From contig NZ_CAMXCI010000006.1 of NCBI RefSeq assembly GCF_947179115.1, positions 28,575 through 52,574 on the forward strand: a DNA stretch of 24,000 nt. Direction: 5' to 3'. The translations under genes and the position numbers were made by a program. Under the pieces are notes generated by a model. That model saw only the letters and a list, made by a program, of their open reading frames with translations, ran no database searches and had not been told where the DNA came from. Below, piece by piece: positions 1 through 19,366 of the stretch. This DNA comes from Commensalibacter papalotli (ex Botero et al. 2024) (GTDB lineage Bacteria > Pseudomonadota > Alphaproteobacteria > Acetobacterales > Acetobacteraceae). Position 1 is the first letter of the stretch. The number at the start of each line of letters is the position of its first letter.

Positions 1-318
1 GCAGCCCCTTATATTCGATATCATACTTTGGTTTTATATGGCGATAATGATCAGCTTGTGCCTATGGGTTCTATGTATACCGTGTGGGAAAAATTCCCTA
101 AATGGGTAAGAAAAGACTATGTGCCTGGAGGCTATCATTTATTATTAAGAGATAAAAACCGTAAAATAGTAGCCAAAGACATTATTACTTGGATTAATGA
201 TCCAGACCAATGGTTACCTTCTGGTGGTGATGCTGCTTCATCTGCATGGATGTCTGTTAAAGGTAAAGGAAAAGTTCCTTTTTTTATGCCCAGTCAAGTG
301 GATAATATTGTTCACTAA
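1..318 (+). CDS. alpha/beta-fold hydrolase (lysophospholipase / monoacylglycerol lipase-like), C-terminal part only; 5' end outside window
   Basis: Frame is open from base 1 (AAPYIRYHTLVLYGDNDQLVP...). The LYGDNDxLVP acid loop and GGYHLLL catalytic-His context are typical of the C-terminal third of alpha/beta hydrolases. Stop TAA at 316-318. Confidence 0.55.
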   Translation, partial: AAPYIRYHTLVLYGDNDQLVPMGSMYTVWEKFPKWVRKDYVPGGYHLLLRDKNRKIVAKDIITWINDPDQWLPSGGDAASSAWMSVKGKGKVPFFMPSQVDNIVH

Positions 319-815
319 CATTGCTGTATTAATTTTTGCATCTCTTGTTGATCCAGTAACCTTTGATTAGCGCTGCCTCGAAAAGACAGTTCTAAATTTT
401 TTTGAGATAATAAAAAAGGGCCATCAATTAGGAGATCTGTCATGGTTAGCAAATCTATAATTGCATGGTTCTGTTTGCTCATTTTTAATAAATTTTCAAA
501 AACATAACCTGTATAGATAGTAATATGTTTTTTTATCGAATGAATTTTTTTAGCTAATTGCACCAAAGGGGCAGCCTGCATGAAAGGCTCGCCACCAGAA
601 AATGTAATGCCATCCAATAATGGATTTTCCTGAAATTGTTCAAAAATGGTTTCAATATCCATACAAAATCCACCTGTGAAAGGGTGTGTTTTGGGGTTGT
701 GGCACCCTGGACATTGATGGGGACAGCCTTGCGTAAAGATGACAAAACGCAAACCTGGCCCATCAACGATTGATTCCTCGACAACGCCACTAAGGCGTAG
801 TTGATGAGCAGTCAT
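315..815 (-). CDS. nrdG: anaerobic ribonucleoside-triphosphate reductase activating protein (radical SAM)
   Basis: CxxxCxxC radical-SAM motif (GCPHQCPGCHNP), plus IVDGPGLRFVIFTQGC and FSGGEP motifs of class III RNR activases. Lies immediately downstream of nrdD. The ORF track starts at 851, but the ATG at 815 (MTAHQLRLSG...) gives the usual short N-terminus. Start is uncertain (815 or 851). Confidence 0.9.
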   Translation of the reverse strand: MTAHQLRLSGVVEESIVDGPGLRFVIFTQGCPHQCPGCHNPKTHPFTGGFCMDIETIFEQFQENPLLDGITFSGGEPFMQAAPLVQLAKKIHSIKKHITIYTGYVFENLLKMSKQNHAIIDLLTMTDLLIDGPFLLSQKNLELSFRGSANQRLLDQQEMQKLIQQC

Positions 816-1020
816 GTTTAACACGGTCTTTTTCTTCTGCTTGTTTAGCATTATTAAAACGATCTACGGTTCCCACGAGGTATCCAGTAATACGGCGTGT
901 TCTTGCAAAACCGATATTTTCACCAACCATTGTTTGATGAGGGGGATTTGCGGATGTATTCGTTTGATTTTCAAGTTTAATCGTCATAATTTTCTCATTT
1001 ATGGTGATAGGTTGGAACAT
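790..1020 (-). CDS. nrdD: NrdD C-terminal glycyl-radical segment, in a different frame from the NrdD body (frameshifted 3' end, or a separately translated small ORF with alternative ATG at 987)
   Basis: Translation contains FARTRRITGYLVGTVDRFNNAKQAEEKDRVKH, the class III RNR glycyl-radical motif (RxxGY ... RVKH). This frame is closed upstream by TAA at 1060-1062. The body ORF stops at 995-997. Confidence 0.7.
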   Translation of the reverse strand: MFQPITINEKIMTIKLENQTNTSANPPHQTMVGENIGFARTRRITGYLVGTVDRFNNAKQAEEKDRVKHDCSSTTP

Positions 1021-3256
1021 TTGGGTATTGCTGGTGCAAAAGACTAAGCTTTTCGACGCTTATAGCTTCACCTTCTTTACGTCCGCATCGGGGGCAGACA
1101 TTATCAATAACACCGACATATCCACAAACAGGGTCTCTGTCTAAGGGATGATTAATGGCACCATAACCAATGCCTTTGGATTGCATATGACGTATGATCG
1201 TTTCAAAAGCATCAAGATTTTTACAAACGTCACCATCAAGTTCAATATAAGTAATATGACCACCATTTGTTAACGCATGATAAGGCGCTTCTATATCAAT
1301 TTTCTTATGTGTTTTTATTGGAAAGTAAACGGGAACATGGAATGAGTTTGTGTAATATTCTCTATCTGTAATTCCTAGTATACTTCCGTATTTTTCACGA
1401 TCCATCATAACAAAGCGTCCACTTAATCCCTCAGCTGGGGTTGCGATCAGGGAAAAATTAAGCTTTGTCTTTTTGGCTTGTTCATCCATGCGTTCTCTCA
1501 TATGAGAAATAATTTTCAGCCCAAGTTCTTGTGCTTCTTTACTCTCTCCATGATGAACCCCGATAAGGGCTTTTAGTGTTTCTGCAAGTCCAATAAAACC
1601 TGCGGTTAAAGTTCCGTGTTTTAATACTTCTTCAACTGTATCTTCCGAATTAAGCAAATGGGAATCAATCCAAATTCCTTGACCCATCAAAAAGGGATAA
1701 TTTTTAACTTTTTTTTGACTTTGAATTTTTAACCGATGTAATAATTGTTCGATAACCAGATCGATTTTTTCATCTAAAAGTGTAAAAAACAGATCAATAT
1801 TGTGATCAGCGTCTAACCCTAATCGTGGAAGATTAATGGAGGTAAAACTTAAATTACCACGCCCACATATTTCAGTTCGATTTTCATCATGTGCATTGCC
1901 CAGAACGCGAGTACGACATCCCATATATGCGACTTCTGATTGATAAGAGTTAGGTTGGTAATATTGATAATTAAAAGGGGCGTCTATAAAGCTGAAATTT
2001 GGGAAAAGTCGTTTAGCAGAAGTTGCCATAGCTTGTTTAAATAAATCGTAATTTGGATCAATTTTTTCAAAATTAACGCCAGATTTTACTTTGAAAATTT
2101 GTACAGGGAAAATAGGGGTCTCCCCATTTCCTAATCCTGCCTCTGTTGCTTTAAGAAGGTTATGAATTGCCATGCGCCCCTCTTCAGAAATATCAGTTCC
2201 ATAATTGATAGAACTGAAAGGGACTTGGGCACCTGCTCTGGAATTCATAGTATTCAAGTTATGAATAAAAGCTTCCATCGCTTGATATGTACGACGGTCA
2301 GTATTGGCTAGGGCTTTTTTACAGGCATAATGATGTGCTGAAATAAGTGCTTCTGTTGAAACGGAAAGGTTGTTAACTTGTTTTAGTTTTGCTTCAAATT
2401 TAGAAATTAAATTAATATGAATATCTTCTTGAAAATGAGATTTCAGGGTCTCTAGTAAAAGATTAATATCCTGCTCAGTCATATCGGTTTTAATTTGAAG
2501 ATACATGGCGAATATTTTCCAATATTCTTGTTTAAAGGTTTTTTTTACCCCTAATGCCATTGCATAATCAAAATTAGGAACACTTTGCCCCCCATGCATT
2601 TCGTTTTGATTGGCTTGTATAGCAATACATGCAAGCGCTGAGTAGCTTTCTATAGAATTTGGCTCTCTTAAATATCCATGCCCTGTTGAAAAACCATTTT
2701 CAAAAAGGGTAATAAGATCAATTTGACAGCAAGTAGCCGTCAACATATAGAAATCTTTGTCATGAATATGAATATCACCATTTTGGTGAGCTTTAGAAAT
2801 ATTAGGTGGCAGAATATAATTATCTATAAAAAATTTTGATCCTTCTGAACCATATTTTAACATCGTTCCCATTGCTGTATCGCCATCTATATTGGCATTT
2901 TCTCTTTTAATATCAGCATCTTTGGCAGAGCTATAGGTTAGTTTTTTATATATATCCATCAAATAGGTTTCACTATTACGGATTTTAGTATGCTCGGCAC
3001 GATATAAAATATATGATTTAGCCGTATCAGCATAATCGTAATGGATTAAAGTTCGTTCAACTATATCTTGGATTCCTTCAACATGATTAACATAATCTTG
3101 GTTGATGTTTTGGCAAACTTTTTCAGTTAAAAATAAATGATCTGTAGGTGTCATGTTTTCATCAAGTGTTGCATTATTGGCTTTGATGATTGCATTCAGA
3201 ATTTTAACTTGGTCGAAAGGTGCTAGAGACCCGTCTCTTTTGATAATGTGTGTCAT
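995..3256 (-). CDS. nrdD: anaerobic ribonucleoside-triphosphate reductase (class III), catalytic body lacking the glycyl-radical tail in this frame
   Basis: N-terminal ATP-cone (MTHIIKRDGSLAPFDQVKILNAI). Also ENANIDGDTAMGTMLKYGSE, GDIHIHDKDFY, TCCQIDL and the C-terminal Zn-site-like VCGYVGVIDNVCPRCG. Start placed at ATG 3256 (AAGG 7 nt upstream). The 21 extra codons up to 3319 in the ORF track overlap palindromic, regulatory-looking DNA. Confidence 0.93.
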   Translation of the reverse strand: MTHIIKRDGSLAPFDQVKILNAIIKANNATLDENMTPTDHLFLTEKVCQNINQDYVNHVEGIQDIVERTLIHYDYADTAKSYILYRAEHTKIRNSETYLMDIYKKLTYSSAKDADIKRENANIDGDTAMGTMLKYGSEGSKFFIDNYILPPNISKAHQNGDIHIHDKDFYMLTATCCQIDLITLFENGFSTGHGYLREPNSIESYSALACIAIQANQNEMHGGQSVPNFDYAMALGVKKTFKQEYWKIFAMYLQIKTDMTEQDINLLLETLKSHFQEDIHINLISKFEAKLKQVNNLSVSTEALISAHHYACKKALANTDRRTYQAMEAFIHNLNTMNSRAGAQVPFSSINYGTDISEEGRMAIHNLLKATEAGLGNGETPIFPVQIFKVKSGVNFEKIDPNYDLFKQAMATSAKRLFPNFSFIDAPFNYQYYQPNSYQSEVAYMGCRTRVLGNAHDENRTEICGRGNLSFTSINLPRLGLDADHNIDLFFTLLDEKIDLVIEQLLHRLKIQSQKKVKNYPFLMGQGIWIDSHLLNSEDTVEEVLKHGTLTAGFIGLAETLKALIGVHHGESKEAQELGLKIISHMRERMDEQAKKTKLNFSLIATPAEGLSGRFVMMDREKYGSILGITDREYYTNSFHVPVYFPIKTHKKIDIEAPYHALTNGGHITYIELDGDVCKNLDAFETIIRHMQSKGIGYGAINHPLDRDPVCGYVGVIDNVCPRCGRKEGEAISVEKLSLLHQQYPNVPTYHHK

Positions 3257-3320
3257 AACATACCTTGAAAACGTAATGTTTAAAGAATCAAGATGTAATT
3301 TAAGAATGATTCTTAACATT

Positions 3321-3336
3321 AAACTATATATAGTAT
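3321..3336. promoter_or_regulatory. candidate NrdR box upstream of nrdD
   Basis: aaACTATATATAGTat matches the published 16-bp NrdR palindrome (acaCwAtATaTwGtgt) at 14/16 positions. A weaker half-match, tcacaatatatttcaa, lies at 3374-3389, 53 bp away centre to centre. Confidence 0.45.
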
Positions 3337-3363
3337 TTAAATATAAATCAAACTACTATTTGT

Positions 3364-3377
3364 ATGATTTTGATCAC
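3364..3377. promoter_or_regulatory. candidate FNR/CRP-family site upstream of nrdD
   Basis: aTGATtttgATCAc has a TGAT-N4-ATCA core, 8/10 to the FNR consensus TTGAT-N4-ATCAA. On the - strand it also reads TGTGA-N6-TCATA (CRP-like). It lies about 114 nt upstream of the ATG at 3256. Confidence 0.3.
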
Positions 3378-3768
3378 AATATATTTCAAAACGATTTTTG
3401 ATGACTTTTTGTATGTATGCAACAGCTATAGTTTTTAATTCGATTTTTTTTATTAAGGTTTTAAGAATTTATGAATTTTTTTTATGATTTATAATCATCA
3501 CTGAAGGAAATAGAGCTATATTTCAAAATAGATATAGTTCGATTAAATTATACTAACGGTGATTTTTTATAGACCTCAGTTCATGTTAATAAATGAGGTC
3601 TTAGATTCTTCTGATTCATAATATATTTATGGATCAATAATATAAATTATTTTGATACTATCCTAAAATGGTCAGGATAAACAATTTAAAGTTTGAAACA
3701 AGAATTCTAACCATGATTTTTATAGAACCGAAGATGCAACAGCTAGTAAAGAAAAATATGATCTTTAA

Positions 3769-3811
3769 TTGCTTACTTGTAAGTTTAGTTCAATCTTTTA
3801 CAAGTAAGCAA
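3769..3811 (-). terminator. hairpin immediately downstream of the repeat-Hint gene (possible terminator)
   Basis: Perfect 13-bp stem, ttgcttacttgta (3769-3781) with tacaagtaagcaa (3799-3811), and a 17-nt loop. It begins 9 nt after the stop codon. There is no clean U-run after it on the - strand. Confidence 0.4.
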
Positions 3812-3819
3812 TATTTATT

Positions 3820-6280
3820 TTAAACAGCAATAGACTGAATTTGTTTTTGTTTAAGAGGATATGCTCTATCAGAACAAACTTGAATAATTAATTTTCGTTC
3901 TTTATGATTATTGTCAGGCAGATTCAATAATGCTTTTCCTTTTGTCCAACGACAAGGTTGTTGTTCCAAAGTATGCCACCCTGGTAAATCATCTTGCGTT
4001 AGATGATTGGTCATATTAATTACTTGTATATTATAGGCTGCACTTACGATTTGGATACTTCCAACTGAGATACCTAACTCATGACGGTTATCTTCAAAAG
4101 GTCCATCAATATCATTTAAGCGGCTTGTTCTGGATACAAGATAAACGCTTTTAATATTTTCATCAGGTAAAGGGAATATATATCGACCTTGAAAATGTGA
4201 TATAGGTTCAATAGTTAAACCATCTTGTGTAATCAAATGAAAATCAGGATCATGGGTAAGTTGATTTTTATCTTGCATCATTGGTAAACCCATCTTTATA
4301 GCACGTTGCAATAACGTATGATAAAGAGGTTCAACGTAACTGCGATCAACCATTAAGGGGGCACCAGCATCTTTCCCCCAAGTTTTGGGTTTTTTTGGGC
4401 GTATTAAAATAGCACAATCACCATGTTGACTAAATTGGGTTTGATTTCCTGTATCCAGATAACTCTCTGTTAACACTCCATTTGCCCAAATAACTGAATG
4501 CTCCTCTGTTTCAAAATGATAATAAGTGTAGTTTGTAATCGAATAATCATAAAAAATACTATACCCATTCACAAACATACGAGCAGGGGTGAATTTTCCA
4601 TTAAAAAACAAACAATGCTCAGGGGTAATTAATAGATCTTTGCAAGGAGTACCTTCAGCAATAGCATCTTTTAAAATGCGTACAGGATACCCTGCTTCAT
4701 CATCATGTAATGTTGGATTAACTTTTACGGTTTTATTTCCGACCCAACGAACAGATTGAACATCTTCTTTATTTTGTTGCCAGTTAAAACTAAGGATTTT
4801 ATCACCAATACGAATATCCTCTACCGCGATTTCTCCTTCAAGCGTTTTAATCATAGAACCCGCAAGAAAACAAACCTCATAAATTAAATTACCAGTTGAA
4901 TCAGATGCAAGATGATATCCTTCATTTTTGGCGCCAGGAATATTTAAGGAAATTTTATTACCATTATTAAGAATTAAGGTTACAAAATCACCATTGATAT
5001 TTCCATTAACATCTTCAAAGGCTACGTTAGTAACATTAGAGGTTTGAATGCCTGCTAATTTAATTTGATCTGACCAACTCGTGCTTGCACCATCAAAATT
5101 GTTGATTAAGGTTGTTACGATACCACCATTTTCAAGACCCGAAATAGTTAAGCCATGATTACCATTTCCAGGAAAATTGATTGTTCCACCAGCATCTGGA
5201 TAAATTGTGGCGTAACCCCCATGAAGAGTTATTTCACCATTTATTTTTCCACCAGAAGAAACCGTCAGTAACCCTCCGAGATCTACACTAGTAATAGAGC
5301 CACCTGAGGAAACTGTTACATCTCCATTAGCATAAACATATGTATTAATGGCACTTCCGCCAGAAGAAACAATAAGCGATCCAACACTTGTATTAGAAAT
5401 AATGGCTCCTGAGGCAACTATAAGCGTCCCTTGAGCAAAAACCTGCGTATCAGACATAGTTGCTCCCGAAGCAACTATAATTTTAGCGCTAGTATAAACA
5501 CTCGTATGAATAAAATTCATATTAGAAGGGATTGTAAACTCCCCTCCGATACTTGCGTTATAAAACGTCACCCCTGAGGGGCCTATAAGATCGGCAGAGT
5601 TAATATATGCATTAGAAATAGTGACCCCAGAGGAAACAGTTAGTTGTCCACCAGAGTAAATAAATATACCAGAAACATTCACCCCTAAAGCAACTGTTAA
5701 CTGCCCTCCAGAGTTAATAGTTGTATCAATAATACTTGCTCCTGAAGCAACTGGGATCTGCCCTCCAGAAGAAACATATATACCAGAAATATTTATCCCT
5801 GAAGAGACCGCATATTGTACGCCAGATAAAATAAATATATTCGCGACATTTGCTCCTGGGGAAGCTGTAAATAGTCCTCCATCAGAAATCGTTATTTCAG
5901 TAATACTTGCTCCAGAGGAAGCGGTAAACTCTGCTCCAGAGAGAATAATTGTACGAGAAACACTTGCTCCAGAGATAACAGAAAATAGACCTCCAGAATA
6001 AATAGATGTATCAGAAACACTTCCATTAGAAGTAACTATTAAATTCCCACCAGATAAAATATTGGTATTAGAAGCATTCCCGTTTGAAACAACTGTTAAT
6101 TGCCCCCCCAGCATAAATGGATGTATCAGAAACTCTTCCATATGAAGATACCGTTAATTGTCCTCCAGAATAAATGGATGTATTATAAGCACTTCCAAAT
6201 GTAGAAATTATAAGCTGTTCTCCATAGGAAATGGATATATTAGAAACAATTTCACCTGAGGAGACTACTGTGTTTGACAT
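3820..6280 (-). CDS. AIDA-type beta-helix repeat / Hint-domain protein, interrupted by a +1 frameshift in a G7 tract (two ORFs, 6280-6068 and 6141-3820; about 819 aa if the tract were G6)
   Basis: The 70-aa ORF (6068-6280) and the 773-aa ORF (3820-6141) carry the same 19-aa repeat. Removing one G from 6103-6109 reads ...IYAGGQLTVVSNGNASNTNI..., joining them exactly. Hint_2-like block: CFLAGSMIKTLEGEIAVEDIRIGDKIL...PVRI...LLITPEHCLF...YYHFETEEHSVIWANGVLTESY. Confidence 0.85.
4432..4872 (-). other. Hint (Hedgehog/intein-like, Hint_2 / bacterial intein-like) module within the repeat protein
   Basis: Starts with the nucleophile Cys (TGT at 4872-4870) in YEV|CFLAGSMIKT. No intein-type C-terminal His-Asn + Cys/Ser/Thr junction and no homing-endonuclease insert were seen. 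Confidence 0.75.
5212..6280 (-). repeat. about 20 tandem, degenerate 57-nt (19-codon) coding repeats
   Basis: The protein reads as consecutive 19-residue units, e.g. GGQLTVSSYGRVSDTSIYA / GGQLTVVSNGNASNTNILS / GGNLIVTSNGSVSDTSIYS / GGQLTVSSGVTISNAYINS. This is the SGGxxxVxSGxxxxxTxI rung pattern of AIDA-I/Ag43-type passenger beta-helices. Confidence 0.85.
6103..6109 (-). repeat. homopolymeric tract, G7 on the coding strand (C7 on +), at the frameshift site
   Basis: The + strand reads t-g-ccccccc-a at 6101-6110. The frame change between the two repeat-bearing ORFs maps exactly here. Confidence 0.9.
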
Positions 6281-6930
6281 ATTGATTGCCTTGTAAGCAG
6301 AAAAATTAAGAATTTAATACGAAGATTCTATCTATATATTTCTTAGTTTAAACCTAACCTGCTTTTGTTAAGTTTCGATATCAAATTTTCTATAATTATA
6401 AATATATTTATTGATAGTTCAGAGGTTATAGTCGCTTCATTAGTAACTTAATGGTTTATTTAAAGCTTACCGATAATAATTGGTAAGTATTAGATAAAAA
6501 ATATACATTCTTATTGTTTCGCTCATTGGTTGATAGCCAAAATGTGAGCGTTACTGCTAGAAGGACAATAATTAGAATATTTTAACCATCGCATCTTAAA
6601 GTTATCATTAAACATTATACAATGATATTGGGTAGCGAAACAGGATTAAGCGCGTCAGTTGTCACTAAATATAAACTAAACATTCGATCAAACAGAGTTC
6701 AATAATAAGTATTTAATTAAAAGAGCTATCTCTGAAAACTTTATCCAGATTTATTATTTAGCTAATAACGAAAAATTATAAATATATATCCAACATATAA
6801 TGACTGGACAGATTAATAGAAGATTTCTATGGGGGAGTTGATCAGTTGAACTATACAACATCATGCTTAGAAAAAGCGAAGAGATTTTAAAATATCGAAC
6901 AAGAAATATAACTAGTGCAAAAATGAATAT

Positions 6931-6970
6931 TTATAAAAACATAAGATGCTTAATAAAAGCACCTTATGTT
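6931..6970 (-). terminator. rho-independent terminator of the PFOR operon
   Basis: On the - strand: aacataaggtgctt-ttatt-aagcatcttatgtt, a 14-bp stem with one G-U pair, followed by TTTTTAT. It lies 50-90 nt downstream of the stop at 7020. Confidence 0.6.
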
Positions 6971-7019
6971 GAAATATTATAATTTTATTTTATGAAAAAT
7001 CGTTATTCATTGATGTAAA

Positions 7020-8030
7020 TTATTTAGGATGAAAGGAACCAACTAATTTAATATAATGGCTACGTTCATAGGCTTGATTGTTTTTTAATTTCTGCCAGCT
7101 CATTTGACCACGCATTAACTTAAGATCTGTTTGTTGACGAGCTTTAAGCCACATGCAAAGACCATCAAGTAAAGCTTCAACATAGTTTGGACCATGTCGT
7201 AATAGCGCACTGGTTGTCATTACTGTATCAGCTCCTGCCAATAAAAATTTGACAACTTGTTGATAGTCATCAACGCCAGTTGAAGCTGCAAGAGATGCAT
7301 TAACCCGTCGTGCTAATAATCCTATCCATTGCAGAGCAATTAACCCTTCACTCATGTTACTGAGGCTATAACGAGATGTTATATCCAAATTTTGTATATC
7401 TATATCAGGAGACATTATTCTATTGAATAAAACCAACCCATTTGCGCCTGCATCAATCATACGCTGAGCAAGATTCCCCATTGAGGTAAAATAAGGAGAT
7501 AATTTTACTGCCAAAGGAATATCGACATGCTTACGAATATTCGCGATAATACTAATATAACCATCCTCGATTTGTTGGCTTGAGATATTAATATTTGTAG
7601 GAACAGAGAAAATATTTAGCTCTAAAGCATCTGCACCAGCTTCTTGGATAAGTTTTGCATATTCTACCCAAGCACTATTTGTATATCCATTTAAACTGGC
7701 AATAACAGGCACAGAAACTGTTTTCTTAGCTGTTTCTACAAGTTTAAGATATGCTTCGGGGCCTACTCCATAAGGGCCTGAGGCAATATTATCTATGGGT
7801 AAATAGCTGCTGGCTTCAGCAGAATGATAATGATGAAGTGTATCAAGCTCTTCAAAGGCATAATCGATTTGTTCTTGAAAAAGAGAGGGCAATACAATTG
7901 CTGCTATTCCTGCTTTTTCAAGCGTTTTTAAATACTCCATATCTGTATGCATAGGTGAAGCAGAAGCGATGATAGGAGTTTTTAAGGTTAAACCCAAATA
8001 TTGACTGGTTAAGTCTATTTTATGGTTCAT
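7020..8030 (-). CDS. dihydroorotate dehydrogenase-like (class 1 DHOD / DPD domain IV-like) FMN TIM-barrel protein
   Basis: LKTPIIASASP, PVIASLNG, GADALELN, PLAVKLSP, GLVLFNR and GGV/GADxV-type C-terminal motifs of the DHOD/DPD family. The ATG lies 2 nt after the PFOR stop. Confidence 0.85.
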   Translation of the reverse strand: MNHKIDLTSQYLGLTLKTPIIASASPMHTDMEYLKTLEKAGIAAIVLPSLFQEQIDYAFEELDTLHHYHSAEASSYLPIDNIASGPYGVGPEAYLKLVETAKKTVSVPVIASLNGYTNSAWVEYAKLIQEAGADALELNIFSVPTNINISSQQIEDGYISIIANIRKHVDIPLAVKLSPYFTSMGNLAQRMIDAGANGLVLFNRIMSPDIDIQNLDITSRYSLSNMSEGLIALQWIGLLARRVNASLAASTGVDDYQQVVKFLLAGADTVMTTSALLRHGPNYVEALLDGLCMWLKARQQTDLKLMRGQMSWQKLKNNQAYERSHYIKLVGSFHPK

Positions 8031-8032
8031 TT

Positions 8033-11000
8033 TTATACTCCCACACTTTCTCTTGCTGCGATACCTGATTCAAACGGATCCGGCTGAAAGCGACTACCAT
8101 CTCTTGCAGCCAAATCTTCATAAGTTCTGTAGCGTTCGTTTACCCAGTTCTGCGCCATTTTCATTAGATACTCTGCTTCTTTAGGATTGCTTTTTAACAA
8201 TGCTTTATATCGGATTTCATTATATGCGTAGGTTGATAAGGGTAAATTGGGTTTATTAGAATCTAAACGGAAAGGATTTTGCCCATAAGTTCTCATTCTT
8301 GGGTCAAATCTAAAGAGAGGCCAATATCCCGTTTCAGTTGCTAGATGTTGTTGGTTCATTCCTTTTGTCATATCAATACCATGAGCAATACAATGGCTAT
8401 ATGCTAAGATAATAGAAGGACCATCATAAGTTTCTGCTTCTCTAAAGGCTTGCAAGGTTTGCTGTGGATTTGCACCCATGGCGACTTGGGCCACATACAC
8501 ATTACCATAAGCAATCGCTTGTAGTGCTAAGTCTTTACGAGGCGTGTGTTTGCCTCCAGTAGCAAATTTAGCAATAGCTGCCATTGGTGTTGCCTTAGAA
8601 GCTTGCCCTCCAGTATTAGAATAAACTTCGGTATCTAACACGAGTATATTTACATTCTTACCACTGGCTAATACATGATCTAAACCACCATAACCAATAT
8701 CATATGCCCAACCATCACCACCAACAATCCAAATACTGCGACGTACAAGATGATCTACCAAAGACAACATATTTTGAACACGAGCATCTTTATCTTTTAA
8801 GGGTAACAATTTCACTTTAAGCTCAGCAATCCGTTCTCTTTGCTTACGAATTTCTGATTCTTGATCCTGAGGTGCGTGAATAATGTCATCAATTAAAGAA
8901 GCATCTACTATATCTGCCAGTTCATTTAATTGTTTAACAGCAAGCTCTAATTGGTTATTTGCAGCTAGACGATACCCTAATCCAAATTCAGCATTATCTT
9001 CAAATAATGAGTTAGACCAAGCAGGTCCACGCCCTTCATGATTTTTTGCCCACGGTGTTACAGGTAAATTACCGCCATAAATTGAGGAACAACCCGTAGC
9101 ATTAGCAACTTGCATGCGGTCGCCAAATAATTGACTTAATAATTTTAAATAAGGTGTTTCGCCACATCCAGCACAGGCACCTGGGAACTCAAAGAGTGGT
9201 TGTAGAAATTGCACGCCACGAACATTGGAAAAATCGACATCTGCTCTGTTATTTACAGGGAGTTTCTCAAAAAAATCAATATTCGCTTTTTCTTGCTCAA
9301 AAATATCTGCTTTATCAATCATATTAAGCGCTTTTGTTTCAGACTCAATAAGACTATATGCAGGACAAGCTTCAACACAAAGCCCACAGCCTGTGCAATC
9401 TTCAATATAAACCTGTAAAGTAAATCTGCTTTCAGGATACCCTCTGGCATTTACAGGAACAGATTGAAACCCTTCAGGAGCATTAGCGGCTTCTTTTTCG
9501 TTATAGTAACGAGAGCGAATGACTGAGTGAGGACAGACAAAGCTGCATTGGCCACATTGAATACAAAGATCAGAACGCCATTCAGGAATGATATCCGATA
9601 CATTACGTTTTTCTAGGGCACAAGTGCCACTTGGAAAAGTACCATCTGCTGGAACTGCACTTACTGGAATAGAATCCCCTTCAGCAGCAAACATTTTTGC
9701 TGTGACTTGTTTAATAAAGTCTGAAGAATTTGCAGGAACGAGTGCTATTTTTTCAAGCTTGCTGGTTACTGTTTTAGGTACATCAACTTGTTGTAAATAT
9801 TTTAAAGCACCATCAACAGCAGCATAGTTTTGTTGAACAACATGTTCACCTTTACGGCCATAACTTTTTTGAATATGTGCTTTGATGCTTTTAATGGCTT
9901 GGTCTTTATCTAAAACGCCAGAAATAGAAAAGAAACAAGTTTGTAAAATTGTATTTACCCTAAAGCCAAGGCCTAGTTCTTTGGCTACCGAACTAGCATT
10001 AATGACATAGAATTGGATGTCTTTTTCGATAATCTGTTCTTGAACGTCTTTGGATAATTTATCCCATATTTCACTGGCATCATAAGGTGCATTCAATAAA
10101 AAAACAGAATTATGAGAAGCCAGTTTTAAAATATCTTGTCGCTCTAAAAATTCAAATTTATGACATGCTACAAAATTGGCATGCTCAATTAAATATGGCG
10201 CATCAATAGGTTCTGGCCCAAAACGTAAATGAGATATTGTTTGCGCACCTGATTTATGAGAGTCATAAACAAAGAAGCCTTGAGCATAAAGGCCAGCATC
10301 ATCACCAATAATTTTTACACTATTTTTATTAGCCCCCACGGTTCCATCAGCACCTAAACCAAAGAATACGGCTCTGGTGACTTTATCTGATTCTGGATTT
10401 AATGTTTTATCAAAAGTTAAACTGGTATGGCTGACATCATCATTAATGCCTATCGTAAAGCTGTTACGAGGATGTTCTTTATCTAGCTCTGCATAGACAG
10501 CTATTGCCATTGCGGGAGTAAAGTCTTTGTTAGATAAACCATAACGCCCCCCAATGATAAGAGGCATTTCAGATATTTTTTTACTTGCAATTGCTTGAGC
10601 CATTGCCACAATAATATCTTGATATAAAGGCTCGCCAATGGAACCAACTTCTTTATGTTGCTCTAAAACTGCAATTTTTTTGACTGTTTTAGGTAGAACG
10701 TCCAGCAAATATTGAATAGAAAAAGGACGGAAAAGACGAACTTGGATAACGCCAACTTTTTCACCTTTTGCAGCTAATAATTTAGCAGCTTGAACAGCTG
10801 TTTTCGCACCAGCACCCATTAAAATTAAGATTTTTTCAGGATCTTCTGCACCATAATAATCAAACAGTTTATACTGACGCCCTGTTAATCTTGCGAATTC
10901 ATTCATTGCATCTCGTAAAATATCAGGCACTTTTTCATAATAAGGGTTAACAGCCTCACGTGCTTGAAAAAAAGTATCTGGGTTATGGGCAGTACCACGA

Positions 11001-11641
11001 ATGAATGGATTTTCTGGATTTAAAGCGCGTGCACGATGCGCATAAACTAATTCATCATCGATCATCGTTCTAAGCACTGAATCGTCTAAGATTTCGAGTG
11101 TATTTAATTCATGAGAGGTTCTGAAACCATCAAAGAAATGTAAGAAAGGCACGCGTGATTTTAACGTCGCTACTTGTGAAAGCAATGCGGCGTCATGGGC
11201 TTCTTGAACATTTCCAGAACTAAACAAGGCAAATCCTGTTGTTCTGGCAGCCATGACGTCAGAGTGATCACCAAATATAGATAAAGCAGAAGTAGCTAAC
11301 GCACGAGCAGCCACATGAAAAACCGTTGATGTAAGCTCACCTGCAATTTTATACATATTAGGTAGCATTAACATTAACCCTTGAGAGGCGGTAAATGTTG
11401 TTGTTAATGAACCAGACTGAAGAGCACCATGCACAGCTCCAGCAGCACCACCCTCACTTTGCATTTCTTGAATATGAGGAATGTTACCCCAAATATTCTT
11501 TTTAGCCTGTGCTGCCCATTCATCAGCAAGTTCTGCCATTGTAGAGGAGGGGGTAATAGGGAAAATCGCACAGACTTCGTTTAGGCGATAGGCAACGTCC
11601 GCGGCGGCTGTATTACCATCGATTATAATTCTTTTACTCAT
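8033..11641 (-). CDS. nifJ: pyruvate:ferredoxin (flavodoxin) oxidoreductase, single-chain YdbK/NifJ type
   Basis: About 1200 aa and collinear with E. coli YdbK as I recall it. Two ferredoxin motifs (CIQCGQCSFVCPHS, CTGCGLCVEACP), TPP motif GGDGWAYDIGYGGLDHV, and ACAGCGETPY. The ATG at 11641 lies 2 nt after the upstream stop (a GTG at 11644 is also possible). Confidence 0.96.
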   Translation of the reverse strand: MSKRIIIDGNTAAADVAYRLNEVCAIFPITPSSTMAELADEWAAQAKKNIWGNIPHIQEMQSEGGAAGAVHGALQSGSLTTTFTASQGLMLMLPNMYKIAGELTSTVFHVAARALATSALSIFGDHSDVMAARTTGFALFSSGNVQEAHDAALLSQVATLKSRVPFLHFFDGFRTSHELNTLEILDDSVLRTMIDDELVYAHRARALNPENPFIRGTAHNPDTFFQAREAVNPYYEKVPDILRDAMNEFARLTGRQYKLFDYYGAEDPEKILILMGAGAKTAVQAAKLLAAKGEKVGVIQVRLFRPFSIQYLLDVLPKTVKKIAVLEQHKEVGSIGEPLYQDIIVAMAQAIASKKISEMPLIIGGRYGLSNKDFTPAMAIAVYAELDKEHPRNSFTIGINDDVSHTSLTFDKTLNPESDKVTRAVFFGLGADGTVGANKNSVKIIGDDAGLYAQGFFVYDSHKSGAQTISHLRFGPEPIDAPYLIEHANFVACHKFEFLERQDILKLASHNSVFLLNAPYDASEIWDKLSKDVQEQIIEKDIQFYVINASSVAKELGLGFRVNTILQTCFFSISGVLDKDQAIKSIKAHIQKSYGRKGEHVVQQNYAAVDGALKYLQQVDVPKTVTSKLEKIALVPANSSDFIKQVTAKMFAAEGDSIPVSAVPADGTFPSGTCALEKRNVSDIIPEWRSDLCIQCGQCSFVCPHSVIRSRYYNEKEAANAPEGFQSVPVNARGYPESRFTLQVYIEDCTGCGLCVEACPAYSLIESETKALNMIDKADIFEQEKANIDFFEKLPVNNRADVDFSNVRGVQFLQPLFEFPGACAGCGETPYLKLLSQLFGDRMQVANATGCSSIYGGNLPVTPWAKNHEGRGPAWSNSLFEDNAEFGLGYRLAANNQLELAVKQLNELADIVDASLIDDIIHAPQDQESEIRKQRERIAELKVKLLPLKDKDARVQNMLSLVDHLVRRSIWIVGGDGWAYDIGYGGLDHVLASGKNVNILVLDTEVYSNTGGQASKATPMAAIAKFATGGKHTPRKDLALQAIAYGNVYVAQVAMGANPQQTLQAFREAETYDGPSIILAYSHCIAHGIDMTKGMNQQHLATETGYWPLFRFDPRMRTYGQNPFRLDSNKPNLPLSTYAYNEIRYKALLKSNPKEAEYLMKMAQNWVNERYRTYEDLAARDGSRFQPDPFESGIAARESVGV

Positions 11642-11643
11642 CA

Positions 11644-13269
11644 CTAAATCTCACTTTGCATATCAATGGCATGACATGGACATTGCTCATAACAAGCAGC
11701 ACAACCCGTACATTTGTCTAAATCAACACTATACCCAAGACCTACCCCTAATTTCTTAATGGCGCCTTCAGGACAAGCAGCATAGCAATTGTCACATTCA
11801 TAACAATTCCCACAGGAGAGACATCGTTTTGCTTCATATTGAGCTTGTTGTTCGGTTAATCCTTCAATAATCTCATTAAAATTATCTCGATTAGATAAAG
11901 ACAGTTCTTCTTGTTCTGATTTGGTTGCGTCTGAATAAATTGGCAGATTCATTCCTTGATAGTGAATAACTCTATGCTTGGCAGCAGGCTGGTACAATGT
12001 ATCTCTTAACCACGCATTAACATAGTGTGCTGCTTTTTTACCGTGTCCGACTGCGGTGGTAACCGTTCTGTCGGCTGGCACCATATCACCACCTGCGAAA
12101 ATGCCCGCATGTCCTGTTTGCATATGTGTATCTACAATAACCGTACCATCTTTTTTAAACTCAATGCCGTCTACACTGCGTAAAAAATCAGTCTCGGTCG
12201 TTTGTCCAACAGCAAGTATTAAAGAATCAGCAGATAAAGTTTCAAATTCGCCTGTTGGCACAGGTTTGCCTTCATCATTTAACACTACTTTTTCAATGGT
12301 AATATTGGTACCATCCATGTTTTTAATGGTAGATAACCATTTAATTTTCACACCCTCTTCTAATGCTTCTTCAACTTCGAATTGGTGTGCCGGCATGTGG
12401 TTTTGATCACGACGATAAACGATGATGGCGTCATCAGCACCCAGCCTTTTTGCTGTTCTTGCAGAATCCATTGCCGTATTACCACCACCATAGATGACTA
12501 CTTTACGTCCTAATAATGGCTTCTCACCGATACCAGCTTTTTTTAATACATCAACAGCATCTAGTATTTTTGCTGAATCACGAGCGGGAATATTAATATT
12601 ACTGCCTGCTTGAGCACCGATTGCTAAATAAACCGCATCAAAATTTCCAGCTTTTTGATCATTTAATACATCAGTTATTTTATGATTAAGATTAATTTTG
12701 ATACCAAGAGTAATCAACCGATCAACTTCTTTTTGTAGGATATCACGTGGTAGACGATACGCAGGAATACCAAAATGAAGCATTCCTCCAGATACAGGGC
12801 CAGCTTCAAAAATCTCGACAGTATGTCCAAGCATTGCAAGGTGGTACGCAGCGGAAAGGCCACTTGGTCCAGCACCAATAACCATAACGCGCTTTCCTGA
12901 ATTTGGTATATTTTTTTGGAATTGCCAATTTTCCTCTAGGGCTTTGTCCCCTAAAAAGCGCTCAACAGCATGGATACTGACTGAACTGTTCAGCTCTACT
13001 CTGTTACAAGCCGTTTCACAAGGATGATAACAAACGCGTCCATGAATAGCTGGGAAAGGGTTGTTTTTTGTTAACTCAAGCCATGCCTCGTAATAATCTC
13101 CAGCTTGTGCATGTGCTAACCAGGATTGAATATTTTCACCTGCTGGACAGGCTTCATTACAAGGTGGCAGTAAATCTACATAAATGGGATGGCTTTTACG
13201 TTCAGAACCTGTTGTTTGTGGGCGCATTAAATCCACAATCCCACTCATATCATGTTGGTTTTTATTCAT
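11644..13269 (-). CDS. GltD-family (glutamate synthase small-subunit-like) NAD(P)H-dependent FeS flavoprotein with a C-terminal 2x[4Fe-4S] ferredoxin domain
   Basis: N-terminal Cys cluster region (CNEACPAGENIQ...CYHPCETACNR). Dinucleotide folds VIGAGPSGLSAAYHLA and IYGGGNTAMDSARTA. C-terminal CLSCGNCYECDNCYAACP and CTGCAACYEQCPCHAI. The track start at 13317 is a TTG; the ATG at 13269 (MNKNQHD) has GGAG upstream. Confidence 0.85.
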   Translation of the reverse strand: MNKNQHDMSGIVDLMRPQTTGSERKSHPIYVDLLPPCNEACPAGENIQSWLAHAQAGDYYEAWLELTKNNPFPAIHGRVCYHPCETACNRVELNSSVSIHAVERFLGDKALEENWQFQKNIPNSGKRVMVIGAGPSGLSAAYHLAMLGHTVEIFEAGPVSGGMLHFGIPAYRLPRDILQKEVDRLITLGIKINLNHKITDVLNDQKAGNFDAVYLAIGAQAGSNINIPARDSAKILDAVDVLKKAGIGEKPLLGRKVVIYGGGNTAMDSARTAKRLGADDAIIVYRRDQNHMPAHQFEVEEALEEGVKIKWLSTIKNMDGTNITIEKVVLNDEGKPVPTGEFETLSADSLILAVGQTTETDFLRSVDGIEFKKDGTVIVDTHMQTGHAGIFAGGDMVPADRTVTTAVGHGKKAAHYVNAWLRDTLYQPAAKHRVIHYQGMNLPIYSDATKSEQEELSLSNRDNFNEIIEGLTEQQAQYEAKRCLSCGNCYECDNCYAACPEGAIKKLGVGLGYSVDLDKCTGCAACYEQCPCHAIDMQSEI

Positions 13270-13640
13270 ATTTCTTTGAACTCCAGATTTGTGGCAAGGT
13301 GATACCTCATCACACAAATGATTATTTATTAATTCATTAAGTTTGAATTTTTTTATTTATATTAGCCTCTCAGTATCCATAAAAATTAGATTTTGTTTGG
13401 ATGTGCTGAATATTAATAATCTAGAAACAGCGGGCCTATAAATTTTGATGAAGACAGAAAAATTACAGTCTCACTATGTCAAGATAAATGATGCACTTGA
13501 CTAGGATCTATATTGCTTAAATTAACTGTATATTACAAACAATATTTAAGGTTTTTGTTAAATATATTGCTTTAAATTATAATGAAATTAATCTATTATA
13601 GTCAGAAATTGCACATCATAGTATCGTTGCAAAATGAGAC

Positions 13641-13778: not shown

Positions 13779-15047
13779 TTATGAAGTGGGCTCTATGGTA
13801 GGAACTTGTTTATTAATAACCTTGTTCACATCAACATCACCACCTGTTAAGGTGAAAATAGAGATAACTGAAAAACTAAAGGCGATAATACCCAAAATAA
13901 TATAGGTATCTTGAAATCCTATTGTTTCATATAGGTTTCCAGTTAAATATGACATTAACATAATTGCAATTTGTTTAAAAAAACAAAAGCATACAAGATA
14001 AATAGTTGCTGATAATCTAATTTCAAAAACAGTAGTAATATATTTAAAACACCCGACAATTAAAAATGGAACTTCAAACATATGGAGTGTTTTCAAAATA
14101 ATAACTTCAATAACAGAAGTAGCAAAAGCTGATCCTAAAATCCGCACAGACATAATGAAACCCGCAATTAATAGTCCATTTTTAGGCCCGATACGATTAA
14201 TAATTAAAGGAGTAAAAAACATCACTAGCGCATTTAATAATTCTCCTAGCGTGGTAACATATCCAAAAGCTCTTGTTCCCTGAGCTTCTGATGTAAAAAA
14301 GGATACAAAAAAATTGGCGAATTGTTGATCAAAGACATCATAGGTACAAGAAACACCGATAACAAATAAACTTAGGAACCAAAGTCTAGGATTTTTAAAT
14401 AATTGTAATACCAAATGAATATCAAAAGGTTTTTCTTGAACTTCAGGTGTAATTTTCTCCTCTTGAGTATTTTTATTTTCTGGGTTGGACAAATATAACA
14501 AGATTGCTAAGCAGATTGCAAAAACAGATCCCATCCAAAAAACAAACTCATTATTAATGGTCATCATATAACCAACAACAGAGGCGCATATTGCCCAACC
14601 AACACATCCAAACATTCTGGCTCTGCCAAATTCAAAATGATTATGACGACTGACTTTTTCTATATATGCTTCAATCGTAGGTGCACCACCATTATAAATA
14701 AAGCCCAAGTAAAACCCACCAACCACAGAAGCAATATAAATATTGACTTTTAGCAAAGGTCCAAGAACGAATATAAAAAATGGGCCAAACAAAACCAACA
14801 TCCCAACAATAACCCATAAGAGATGCTTTTTTGTTCCAAATTTATCTGATAACAGTCCAAAAATTGGTTGGAAAACCAATGCAAAAAAAGAAATGCTGGC
14901 AAACATAATTCCCATATTAGATTTGGAGACATGATGAATTTCACCAAGCCAAATTGGGAAAAAAGGGAAATATGCACCTATAATAAAGAAATATAGAAAA
15001 AAGAAAGATCCAAAAATCCAAAAATTTTGATTTTTAAGATAATACAT
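13779..15047 (-). CDS. lacY: lactose permease (MFS oligosaccharide:H+ symporter)
   Basis: Near-collinear with E. coli LacY as I recall it: MYYLKNx[14 protein letters not shown], FQPx[42 protein letters not shown], [18 protein letters not shown]. Confidence 0.96.
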
Positions 15048-15068
15048 GATGGATTTCCCCTTTGCCTT

Positions 15069-18170
<3,102 letters not shown>

Positions 18171-18181
18171 TCATAACTCCT

Positions 18182-18214
18182 AAATATAAATGTTATTCGT
18201 TCACATTTATATTT
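18182..18214. promoter_or_regulatory. lac primary operator (O1-like) between promoter and lacZ Shine-Dalgarno
   Basis: The - strand core AAATGTGAACGAATAACATTT (18188-18208) matches E. coli O1 AATTGTGAGCGGATAACAATT at 17/21. It sits inside a perfect 12-bp inverted repeat: aaatataaatgt (18182-18193) and acatttatattt (18203-18214). Confidence 0.8.
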
Positions 18215-18241
18215 AGAGTAATAAACACCACCACTTGTAAA
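18205..18241 (-). promoter_or_regulatory. putative lacZY promoter
   Basis: A -35-like TTTACA at 18241-18236, the same hexamer as the E. coli lac promoter. A/T-rich -10 candidates follow: TCTAAA at 18 nt spacing, TAAATA at 20 nt. They overlap the outer operator arm. The -10 assignment is ambiguous. Confidence 0.3.
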
Positions 18242-18280
18242 ATCATATAAAAGTGAGGTGTGGATATTTTCTTATTTTAC

Positions 18281-19366
18281 CTAAGATCTTGCTGATAAAT
18301 AATCTGCAATCACATATAATTGCTTAGCAAACTCTTTATCATTTGTTGAATTTAATGAATTGGCAGAAGTGCTTGTCTCTCTTTTAACTAAACTTGTCGG
18401 TAACACAAGAGATGAAATATTACTCTCGGGAGCGTTCATTTTATGTAATAATTTCTCGACAGCTTGTTTACCCAACTCCTTAAAATCTTGAGCAATAGTC
18501 GTTAACGGAGGATAAAAAAATGCGCTATCCTCTGTATCATCATATCCAATCACTGATATTTGTTCTGGGATTTGAATTCTCAGCTCATGTAAGGCACGTA
18601 ATCCCCCCAATGCCATTTGATCATTAGCAAAACAAATCGCGGTTGGGTGTTGATGAGAATAGCATAATGCTTTTGTCAAGGCATATCCCGAAGCAGAGCT
18701 CCAATCGCCTTCTTGAATACTTATTGGGGATATACGATGCTTTTGTAAGGCTTTAATCCACCCATCAAAACGTAACCGAGCAGATACAGAACTTTGAGGC
18801 CCTGTAATTAACGCAATTGACGTATGTCCGAACTCAATCAGATGTGTAATGCCTTGTTGTCCTCCCTCTCTTGAATCTGTCATTACAGAAAGGCAGGATT
18901 CTTTGGGGTCTACATCCATAAATAAAACAGGAATATTTCGACATAAATGCTGAATTTGAATTATTTGTTGCGAATTGCTGGGGATGTTGACAATAATTCC
19001 ATCGACGCGTTGTTCTAATAATTCGTTGATAACATGGTCTATTATATTCAAAGATTGATTTTTGGCCATTGCAATAACAACACTATATTTTAATTCTTCC
19101 GCATGCACCTTAACAGAAGCTGCAATTTGAGAAGGCGCGTGCAATGAAATATCTGTGGTTGCTAAACCAATCGTACTGCTTTTCTTGCCAGCCAATTGTT
19201 GGGCTACACGATTAGGCGTATAATTCAATGATTTCATCGCAGTGAAAACTGCTTCTTTTGTTTTTATAGAAACGCAAACAGAGCCGTTGATCACACGCGA
19301 AACTGTTTGATAAGACACCCCAGCCAATGCAGCAACATCTTTTAATGTTGGCTGTTTATTAAGCAT
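18281..19366 (-). CDS. lacI: lactose operon repressor (LacI/GalR family)
   Basis: HTH TLKDVAALAGVSYQTVSRVING. Also NYTPNRVAQQLAGK, LHAPSQIAASVK, SVSARLRFDGW, ANDQMALGGLRAL, VIGYDDTEDSAFFYPPLTTIAQDF. Collinear with E. coli LacI as I recall it, and directly upstream of the lacO-lacZ-lacY unit. Confidence 0.95.
   Translation of the reverse strand: MLNKQPTLKDVAALAGVSYQTVSRVINGSVCVSIKTKEAVFTAMKSLNYTPNRVAQQLAGKKSSTIGLATTDISLHAPSQIAASVKVHAEELKYSVVIAMAKNQSLNIIDHVINELLEQRVDGIIVNIPSNSQQIIQIQHLCRNIPVLFMDVDPKESCLSVMTDSREGGQQGITHLIEFGHTSIALITGPQSSVSARLRFDGWIKALQKHRISPISIQEGDWSSASGYALTKALCYSHQHPTAICFANDQMALGGLRALHELRIQIPEQISVIGYDDTEDSAFFYPPLTTIAQDFKELGKQAVEKLLHKMNAPESNISSLVLPTSLVKRETSTSANSLNSTNDKEFAKQLYVIADYLSARS

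Follow-up and report, generated by a model that had tools for sequence, protein, structure and literature searches.

HINT domains carry out an N-to-S acyl shift at their first cysteine (PMC7664689, PMC7765530, PMC5874633). Bacterial intein-like (BIL) domains, which have no +1 nucleophile, give mainly cleaved products (PMC7664689), and those of the B type self-cleave at their N- or C-terminus (PMC7765530, PMC5874633). The heptosyltransferases AAH and TibC, known from gene pairs with AIDA-type adhesins, belong to the BAHT family (PMC4358343). The gene described here lies on the minus strand of a 24,000-nt stretch of contig NZ_CAMXCI010000006.1 of Commensalibacter papalotli, an insect-gut acetic acid bacterium of about 37% G+C (PMC10149009). 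This whole stretch is called the window. After correction of one frameshift the gene encodes a protein of 819 amino acids (aa), in which an AIDA/Ag43-type beta-helix is followed by a linker, a Hint_2 domain and a C-terminal domain (CTD).

We consider it probable that a B-type bacterial intein-like module in this protein releases or transfers an acidic, cysteine-free beta-helix, and that export is independent of Sec, possibly through a type I secretion system (T1SS) encoded elsewhere, the copy in the window being either switched off or decaying. The parts of the gene are listed below with the evidence for each, structure models being from AlphaFold2 (AF2).

3820..6280, minus strand: whole gene, 819 aa after removal of one G from a run of seven (G7); an intact syntenic orthologue (P0001) exists
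5245..6280, minus strand: AIDA/Ag43-type beta-helix, aa 1-345, 12 perfect and about six degenerate rungs (Pfam, TIGR04415, autocorrelation, PDB profile)
4873..5244, minus strand: conserved pre-Hint linker, aa 346-469, ending at Val469 (homologue alignment, AF2)
4444..4872, minus strand: Hint_2 domain, B-type bacterial intein-like, aa 470-612 (Pfam, AF2, Foldseek, PDB profile)
4870..4872, minus strand: codon TGT of Cys470, the Hint nucleophile, invariant in 71 sequences; predicted scissile bond Val469-Cys470
4615..4626, minus strand: block B motif Thr552-Pro-Glu-His555 (TxxH) (homologue alignment)
4459..4467, minus strand: Glu605-Ser606-Tyr607, at the position of the inteins' His-Asn plus nucleophile (motif alignment alone not significant)
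3823..4443, minus strand: family-specific CTD, aa 613-819, 207 residues (AF2, phmmer, Pfam, Foldseek)

The Hint_2 module, its expected chemistry and the beta-helix

The module that the initial annotation had placed at codon 4872-4870, with Cys as its first residue, was found to be a genuine domain of the HINT superfamily, with the catalytic residues and the right fold. Pfam Hint_2 (PF13403) matched aa 469-610 with 112.2 bits against a gathering cut-off of 28.4 (E=3.6e-32), covering profile positions 1-146 of 147. The AF2 model of the domain had a predicted local distance difference test (pLDDT) score of 88. In Foldseek it matched 6tmm, 2lwy, 1mi8 and 4o1r (E=3e-6, probability 1.0, target-normalised template modelling score 0.64-0.71), and its partners comprised the Tetrahymena BUBL BIL2 domain, a bacterial intein-like domain of Clostridium thermocellum, DnaB mini-inteins and a Vint domain. 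Among the three Pfam families proposed at the outset for profile searches, Hint_2 and AIDA were significant and PT-HINT reached only 14.1 bits.

Cys470, the first residue of the domain, follows the residues YEV and opens block A with CFLAGSMIKT. Across 71 homologues Cys470, His555 and Glu605 were invariant, and Ser606 and Tyr607 nearly so. The last Hint strand ends in VLTE-S-Y and a nearly invariant Leu-Asp-Thr-Gly comes after it. The alignment of the 71 homologues contained no His-Asn plus nucleophile junction at the C-terminal end of the domain, in agreement with the first reading of the DNA; Glu605-Ser606-Tyr607 appears to stand there instead. A local alignment with block G of the Npu DnaE intein set Ser606 at the Asn position with a score that 203 of 500 shuffled sequences also reached.

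Since Cys470 and the block B histidine are invariant and a His-Asn plus nucleophile junction is missing, N-terminal cleavage or transfer at Val469-Cys470 would be the expected chemistry. This agrees with the prediction made at the outset, and the fold and the behaviour described for related domains (PMC7765530, PMC5874633) are consistent with it. Protein splicing is not expected because there is no Asn-type C-terminal junction. In the proposed reaction Cys470 would attack the carbonyl of Val469 in an N-to-S acyl shift, helped by Thr552 and His555 of block B, and the thioester formed between the two residues would be resolved by water or another nucleophile. The protein would thereby be split into a beta-helix fragment of 47 kDa (pI 4.2) and a Hint-CTD fragment of 40 kDa.

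The part upstream of the predicted scissile bond starts with the beta-helix. BLOSUM autocorrelation of aa 1-345 showed maxima at lags 19, 38 and 57, the Pfam AIDA family matched the rungs with E=1.6e-19, and TIGR04415, the strand-loop-strand repeat that is a target of heptosylation, scored 75.2 bits against a cut-off of 30 in ten stretches. A profile of 71 family members searched against the PDB sequences found the AidA-I family adhesin 7ko9 (E=4.7e-55), as well as TibA and Ag43. The assignment of regular 19-residue rungs to the AIDA/Ag43 type was therefore correct, but the number of about 20 given before was slightly generous, since 12 rungs (aa 1-228) keep a perfect register and the other six or so are degenerate. 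The first 469 residues have a pI of 4.15, contain no cysteine and consist for 25% of Ser and Thr. A spacer between rungs and Hint domain, also described before, is present; it is actually a conserved linker of about 125 aa, confidently modelled by AF2 as a folded (beta) region, with a 13-residue tether of low model confidence (aa 455-467) just ahead of Cys470.

The conserved C-terminal domain and its possible roles

About 200 further residues had been noted behind the Hint module and 207 were found. AF2 modelled this CTD confidently (pLDDT 88) as one long helix and, after it, a region rich in strands that we read as a putative beta-sandwich. With phmmer, 891 proteins with the CTD (516 at E<=1e-10) were found among 1.84 billion cluster representatives, and in all 891 matches the domain ends within a few residues of the protein C-terminus. 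Hint_2 stands directly before it in 68 of 70 sampled proteins; AIDA repeats were detectable in 13 of the 70. Across 28 aligned CTDs, identity to that of the window was 30-66%, and certain positions occupied by Asp, Arg, Gly, Trp, Thr, Ala and Tyr were invariant. No Pfam family matched the CTD. Comparison with solved structures in Foldseek (PDB) gave a best E of 0.03, the predicted viral structures gave no significant match and a profile of the 28 sequences found nothing among PDB sequences even at E<=10. The CTD is the least explained part of the protein, and its near-obligate pairing with Hint_2 is new in this analysis.

These properties bear on the fate of the Val469 thioester. An acceptor bound by the CTD could attack it, so that the beta-helix would be transferred rather than released and become covalently anchored or cross-linked, in the manner of Hog, BUBL or FrpC. 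Candidate acceptors would be a surface glycan or lipid, peptidoglycan, a lysine of another copy or a component of the host gut matrix. We regard such a transfer as unlikely, although several features point to it. The CTD is nearly always paired with Hint_2 and always the last domain, it is conserved rather than polymorphic and has invariant positions, the 125-aa stretch before the scissile bond is conserved too, and the BUBL BIL2 domain is among the best structural matches of the Hint model. An adduct recognition region behind Hint is, furthermore, already a known concept (PMC2362128). By analogy, a Hedgehog-like role in adduct recognition is conceivable for the near-obligate conserved CTD together with the conserved linker. 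Weighing on the other side, the CTD has no recognisable ligand-binding fold, given the Foldseek value above and the empty Pfam and PDB sequence searches. Bacterial intein-like domains are also reported to give mainly cleaved products (PMC7664689).

In a fuller version of this idea, Hint_2-CTD would be a bacterial counterpart of Hog and replace the autotransporter barrel of adhesins of the AIDA/TibA type. After Sec-independent export, a surface or host acceptor recruited by the CTD would resolve the Val469 thioester and so anchor or cross-link the (hepto)glycosylated beta-helix. This seems to us rather doubtful, and somewhat more so than transfer as such. If true, Hog-like attachment would be self-contained, without a sortase or partner gene, in acetic acid bacteria of insect guts and vinegar.

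The layout of repeats, Hint and C-terminal domain also resembles that of polymorphic toxins such as MafB, CdiA and the Rhs type, where a pretoxin-like Hint would free the CTD as a toxin into a competitor or host cell. Hint domains are found in toxins of contact-dependent inhibition and of Maf systems (PMC4287609, PMC4725963), and PT-HINT matched the window protein weakly (E=0.057) and 5 of 70 family members at E<=0.001. The score in the window protein is nevertheless below the PT-HINT cut-off of 27.7 bits. The CTD is one conserved family (30-66% identity over the 28 aligned sequences, 891 clusters) and thus unlike the variable tip of a polymorphic toxin, because it is conserved and has invariant positions. 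There is no immunity-like open reading frame (ORF) after the window gene and no conserved downstream gene at ten loci or on the plasmid described below, nor was a context of two-partner secretion (TPS), PAAR, VgrG or Rhs found. A toxin function is very improbable.

Distribution, export and the copy in the window

The combination of AIDA-type repeats and Hint_2 had been thought unusual in its genomic background. This view did not hold, as the host belongs to the Acetobacteraceae (Alphaproteobacteria) and about 50 of the best 120 matches carry both Pfam domains, in Commensalibacter, Acetobacter, Gluconobacter, Acidisoma and Acidisphaera. Homologues from Asaia and Swingsia, among the same 120 matches, have full-length coverage and only Hint_2 precomputed. 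Commensalibacter intestini A911 has four copies of the family gene. AIDA plus Hint_2 is a routine architecture of the Acetobacteraceae, with several paralogues per genome, and the family genes are abundant in the chromosomes, plasmids and prophages of acetic acid bacteria that live in insect guts and in food fermentations. The gene in the window is an ordinary, frameshift-broken member in the expected taxon. The initial annotation had allowed that the architecture might turn out to be common and already characterised: the taxonomic survey makes it common, but members are annotated merely as "Hint domain-containing protein" and the sole mention found in the literature calls such a protein "of unknown function" (PMC11999647). 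No paper was found that links "Hint domain" to Acetobacteraceae, and none among the papers listed combines it with AIDA or autotransporter.

With the Hint+CTD half as query, 574 proteins were found. Among the 120 listed, all named organisms were Acetobacteraceae except two labelled Lactiplantibacillus plantarum; many of the listed matches were 550-600 aa long and some were annotated "outer membrane protein". In PLSDB 206 plasmids matched. The full Hint+CTD came mostly from Acetobacter and Gluconobacter; two Rhizobium plasmids matched weakly over the full length, and Sinorhizobium, Paracoccus, Phaeobacter and Ruegeria matched in the Hint part only. A 17.9-kb plasmid of Acetobacter sp. JWB from Drosophila (NZ_CP030873.1) has a Hint protein of 805 aa as its main cargo (5636-8053), located between resolvase-type recombinases and a Tn3 transposase and without partner genes.

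The 62 ORFs flanking ten family loci contained no Pfam family that recurred in more than three cases, and the annotated neighbourhoods of five relatives contained no secretion or immunity genes. The "orphan" state is thus a property of the family at the loci examined, with the exception of a TibC-type gene in three of them. Next to a paralogue of 1218 aa (P0041) in the type strain of C. papalotli lie several short ORFs in a row (L017:13889-17552) that carry fragments of ShlB and Fil_haemagg_2, apparently a two-partner secretion locus in decay.

Six IMG/VR contigs carry family members. In one predicted prophage (L026:113-8555) the family gene follows a tape-measure protein (TMP_2 and SLT) and a phrog_8917 protein after a gap of 610 bp, and this copy could be a tail component or a cargo gene of the prophage (moron). 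Hint_2-CTD genes also lie in predicted prophages on the IMG/VR contigs L022, L024 and L025, with tail-like or anti-repressor neighbours in L022 and L025.

These contigs raise the question whether the protein is a phage-derived fibre, with a tailspike-like beta-helix and Hint-CTD as a self-removing assembly chaperone like Peptidase_S74. Exit by lysis or on particles would then account for the missing signal peptide, and a beta-helix with a self-cleaving C-terminus and no signal peptide indeed resembles a tailspike. The six contigs, the position behind the tape-measure and phrog_8917 proteins and the tail-like or anti-repressor neighbours speak for such an origin. Phage genes are absent from the window and from most other loci, however, the gene lies on the chromosome at a syntenic position in both strains compared, and the copy behind the 610-bp gap could be a moron. 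The rungs are, moreover, of the autotransporter passenger type and paired with TibC in three loci, and the CTD has no significant match among viral structures. We consider a phage fibre quite improbable.

Returning to a self-processing beta-helix protein as the preferred reading, its route out of the cell was examined. As described before, there is neither a signal peptide nor a barrel. The start MSNTVVSSGEIVSN leads directly into the first rung without a hydrophobic core, none of ten N-termini inspected (the window protein and nine homologues) resembled a signal peptide, no 19-aa segment had a mean hydropathy above 1.8 as in a transmembrane segment, and the autotransporter barrel PF03797 gave no match at E<=1. 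HemolysinCabind did not match the window protein, and only 1 of 139 relatives had at least two GGxGxD motifs of RTX proteins. Export would thus be Sec-independent. Commensalibacter is reported to encode only T1SS and type Vb secretion systems (bioRxiv 10.64898/2026.03.23.713742), which makes type I secretion the default candidate, and a T1SS encoded elsewhere may tentatively be put forward as the best one. The missing N-terminal signal and the acidic, cysteine-free passenger of 469 aa are traits shared with T1SS substrates. Phylogenies of flagellar genes of Commensalibacter were built in the same preprint (bioRxiv 10.64898/2026.03.23.713742), and a flagellar export route may also serve the beta-helix protein.

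A heptosyltransferase of the TibC type (TibC_1st and Glyco_transf_9) was located directly upstream of the family gene, on the same strand, in three independent loci:

L022:776-2113 with 2117-7387, same strand: heptosyltransferase and long AIDA-Hint_2 gene
L028:4728-5987 with 6001-9909, same strand: heptosyltransferase and long AIDA-Hint_2 gene
L029:1703-3031 with 3059-6769, same strand: heptosyltransferase and long AIDA-Hint_2 gene

This pairing, like that of CTD and Hint_2, is new in this analysis and mirrors the gene pairs aah-aidA and tibC-tibA. It fits a published observation of O-heptosyltransferase genes and of hint-domain proteins at some polyketide-synthase gene clusters of Acetobacteraceae (PMC8776678). 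TibC-type enzymes were found to be widespread across this family of bacteria in the heptosyltransferase search. The window itself contains no TibC-type gene. The rungs are of the kind that TibC and AAH heptosylate in the cytoplasm, and this protein may be heptosylated as well. Two of the three paired loci adjoin MobC/NikA-like, resolvase or integrase genes.

The frame-corrected length of 819 aa given initially was confirmed. As sequenced, the gene consists of two overlapping minus-strand ORFs in different frames, 6280..6068 (70 aa) and 6141..3820 (773 aa). Deletion of one G from the G7 run in silico yields a single frame, in which the 19-residue rungs continue unbroken across the junction (...SDTSIYAGGQLTVVSNGNAS...).

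6103..6109, minus strand: G7 run (C7 when read on the plus strand) with the frame-breaking insertion of one base, by comparison with GGCGGAAAA in the type strain

At the lesion the type-strain orthologue reads GCTGGCGGAAAATTA and the window reads GCTGGGGGGGCAATTA. This orthologue (P0001, 1028 aa) is the best database relative, syntenic and intact in frame; the order of the genes, with the dihydroorotate dehydrogenase (DHODH)-like gene and the pyruvate:ferredoxin oxidoreductase (PFOR) gene upstream and nrdD and nrdG downstream, is common to both strains. The 70-aa ORF is identical to the N-terminus of P0001, which is longer than the repaired protein by 209 aa or 11 rungs. On the 3' side of the lesion 15 of 651 codons differ (eight synonymous, seven non-synonymous). 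The G7 run was also present in an independent Logan assembly of read set ERR10233549, so that the insertion is a feature of the organism and did not arise in the assembly of this contig; a Logan search found the 773-aa ORF on four contigs. The insertion breaks the frame, and the copy is therefore either phase-variably switched off or a young pseudogene, two outcomes that we take to be about equally likely.

Put at its strongest, the second outcome means that the G7 insertion is fixed and inactivating and that the locus has no function in this strain, to which we give an even chance. Four contigs or assemblies show the frameshift. A homopolymer is missing from this site in the type strain, so the tract is no conserved switch. 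The internal ATG at 6141 is not preceded by a Shine-Dalgarno-like sequence as read from the DNA, and the gene is 11 rungs shorter than its orthologue. Yet the lesion is a single one, the few codon changes behind it are those counted above, every invariant residue of the family is retained, and a G6/G7 run made from two GGG glycine codons is a classic site of slipped-strand mispairing.

Several points weigh against the reading that we prefer. The copy as sequenced cannot give a full-length protein. The protein has no RTX nonapeptides, the six cysteines in its Hint-CTD half are unusual for a T1SS substrate, and neither the surroundings of the window gene nor the annotated loci L001, L017-L021, L028 and L029 yielded a T1SS gene. 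None of the best 120 TibC-type matches was named Commensalibacter. The literature yielded no cleavage, localisation or function assay of any family member. Pfam Hint_2 is taken by us to correspond to the "B-type" domains of Amitai et al. 2003. Because neither a linked T1SS gene nor a recurring flanking family was found at the loci examined, the export route is argued from exclusion and from the one preprint cited above.

The window gene is flanked on one side by nrdG and nrdD and on the other by the DHODH-like gene, the PFOR gene, a GltD-like gene and lacY/Z/I. None of these neighbours, and no other gene in the window, serves secretion or immunity; their absence next to the gene had been noted before.

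6281..7019, minus strand: upstream intergenic region, AT-rich, 739 bp, presumed promoter region, with no recognisable partner gene or Rfam RNA family

Scans for promoters and terminators showed no enrichment and Rfam had no match in the window. Both intergenic flanks (window 3000-4000 and 6000-7000) are unusually long, at 500 and 739 bp, and markedly AT-rich: their G+C is 0.27-0.28, that of the window about 0.37. On the minus strand nrdD is split over two frames, 995-3319 (774 aa, ending after the zinc-ribbon CPRCG) and the overlapping 790-1020 (76 aa), the latter with the glycyl-radical motif RRITGYLVG. In the type strain nrdD is split in this way too (753 and 65 aa, L001:13651-16117). The genes around the locus (window 315-3319 and 7020-13317) are of an anaerobic type, nrdD/nrdG on one side and PFOR, the GltD-like Fe-S flavoprotein and the DHODH-like protein on the other, which is notable for an acetic acid bacterium. 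The lacI-lacZ-lacY cluster lies at window 13779-19366 (LacY_symp match E=1e-176), and the low G+C (0.28-0.33) and AT skew (up to 0.23) of the lacY region suggest horizontal acquisition.

Comparison with known systems

Three classes of protein were rejected for the window gene. In a canonical intein the junction would not read Glu-Ser-Tyr, and the flanks here are variable repeats and a Hint-linked CTD, not halves of one ligatable protein. A classical autotransporter would have a signal peptide and a barrel, and the C-terminus is modelled as a helix and a strand-rich region. An exoprotein of two-partner secretion was rejected for lack of a TPS domain; some database entries label relatives "FhaB".

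With AIDA-I, TibA and Ag43 (type Va) the family shares rungs of 19 residues with a strand-loop-strand form, the right-handed beta-helix, TIGR04415 repeats, a TibC-like gene directly upstream in relatives and a passenger that is parted from its C-terminal module by self-cleavage, here a predicted one. It differs in having no Sec signal peptide and in having Hint and CTD in place of an autochaperone and beta-barrel, and is not type V. Beta-helices like those of AIDA and TibA, some of them TibC-paired, that lack both signal peptide and barrel present a puzzle of export, and its answer could reveal a new way to display or anchor adhesins.

In pretoxin HINT proteins (PF07591; MafB, CdiA and the Rhs type) Hint likewise comes after a delivery region rich in repeats and before a C-terminal domain, but in the window family the CTD is conserved, an immunity gene is absent and PT-HINT stays below threshold. 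FrpC and ApxIVA, RTX proteins secreted by type I systems, are likewise repeat proteins with no signal peptide. Their internal autocatalytic module cuts off the N-terminal fragment and can attach it covalently; the cleavage is a calcium-triggered one at Asp-Pro through an anhydride, in an unrelated fold, and the window protein has no RTX repeats.

The Hog domain of Hedgehog is alike in that Hint is followed by a conserved C-terminal accessory region and, as predicted for the window protein, in a thioester on the last cargo residue that a recruited nucleophile can resolve. There is no sequence membership, and the accessory region here, of about 205 aa, is predicted to be a helix with a strand-rich region behind it and not a short sterol recognition region.

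Closest are the B-type BIL domains of Alphaproteobacteria. They share the HINT fold, Cys1, the TxxH block B and apparently the absence of His-Asn plus nucleophile, occur in variable, repeat-rich, apparently extracellular alphaproteobacterial proteins, and would likewise be expected to self-cleave rather than splice. The tested examples of Amitai et al. 2003 and Dassa et al. 2004 reportedly came from Rhodobacter. An answer for the present family would give a natural context to bacterial intein-like domains, whose biological role has been unclear since 2003. To the B-type domain the window family adds a conserved CTD of about 205 aa and a beta-helix of AIDA-type rungs whose length varies between members. 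Plasmid homologues from Rhodobacterales and Rhizobiales match the window protein only in its Hint part.

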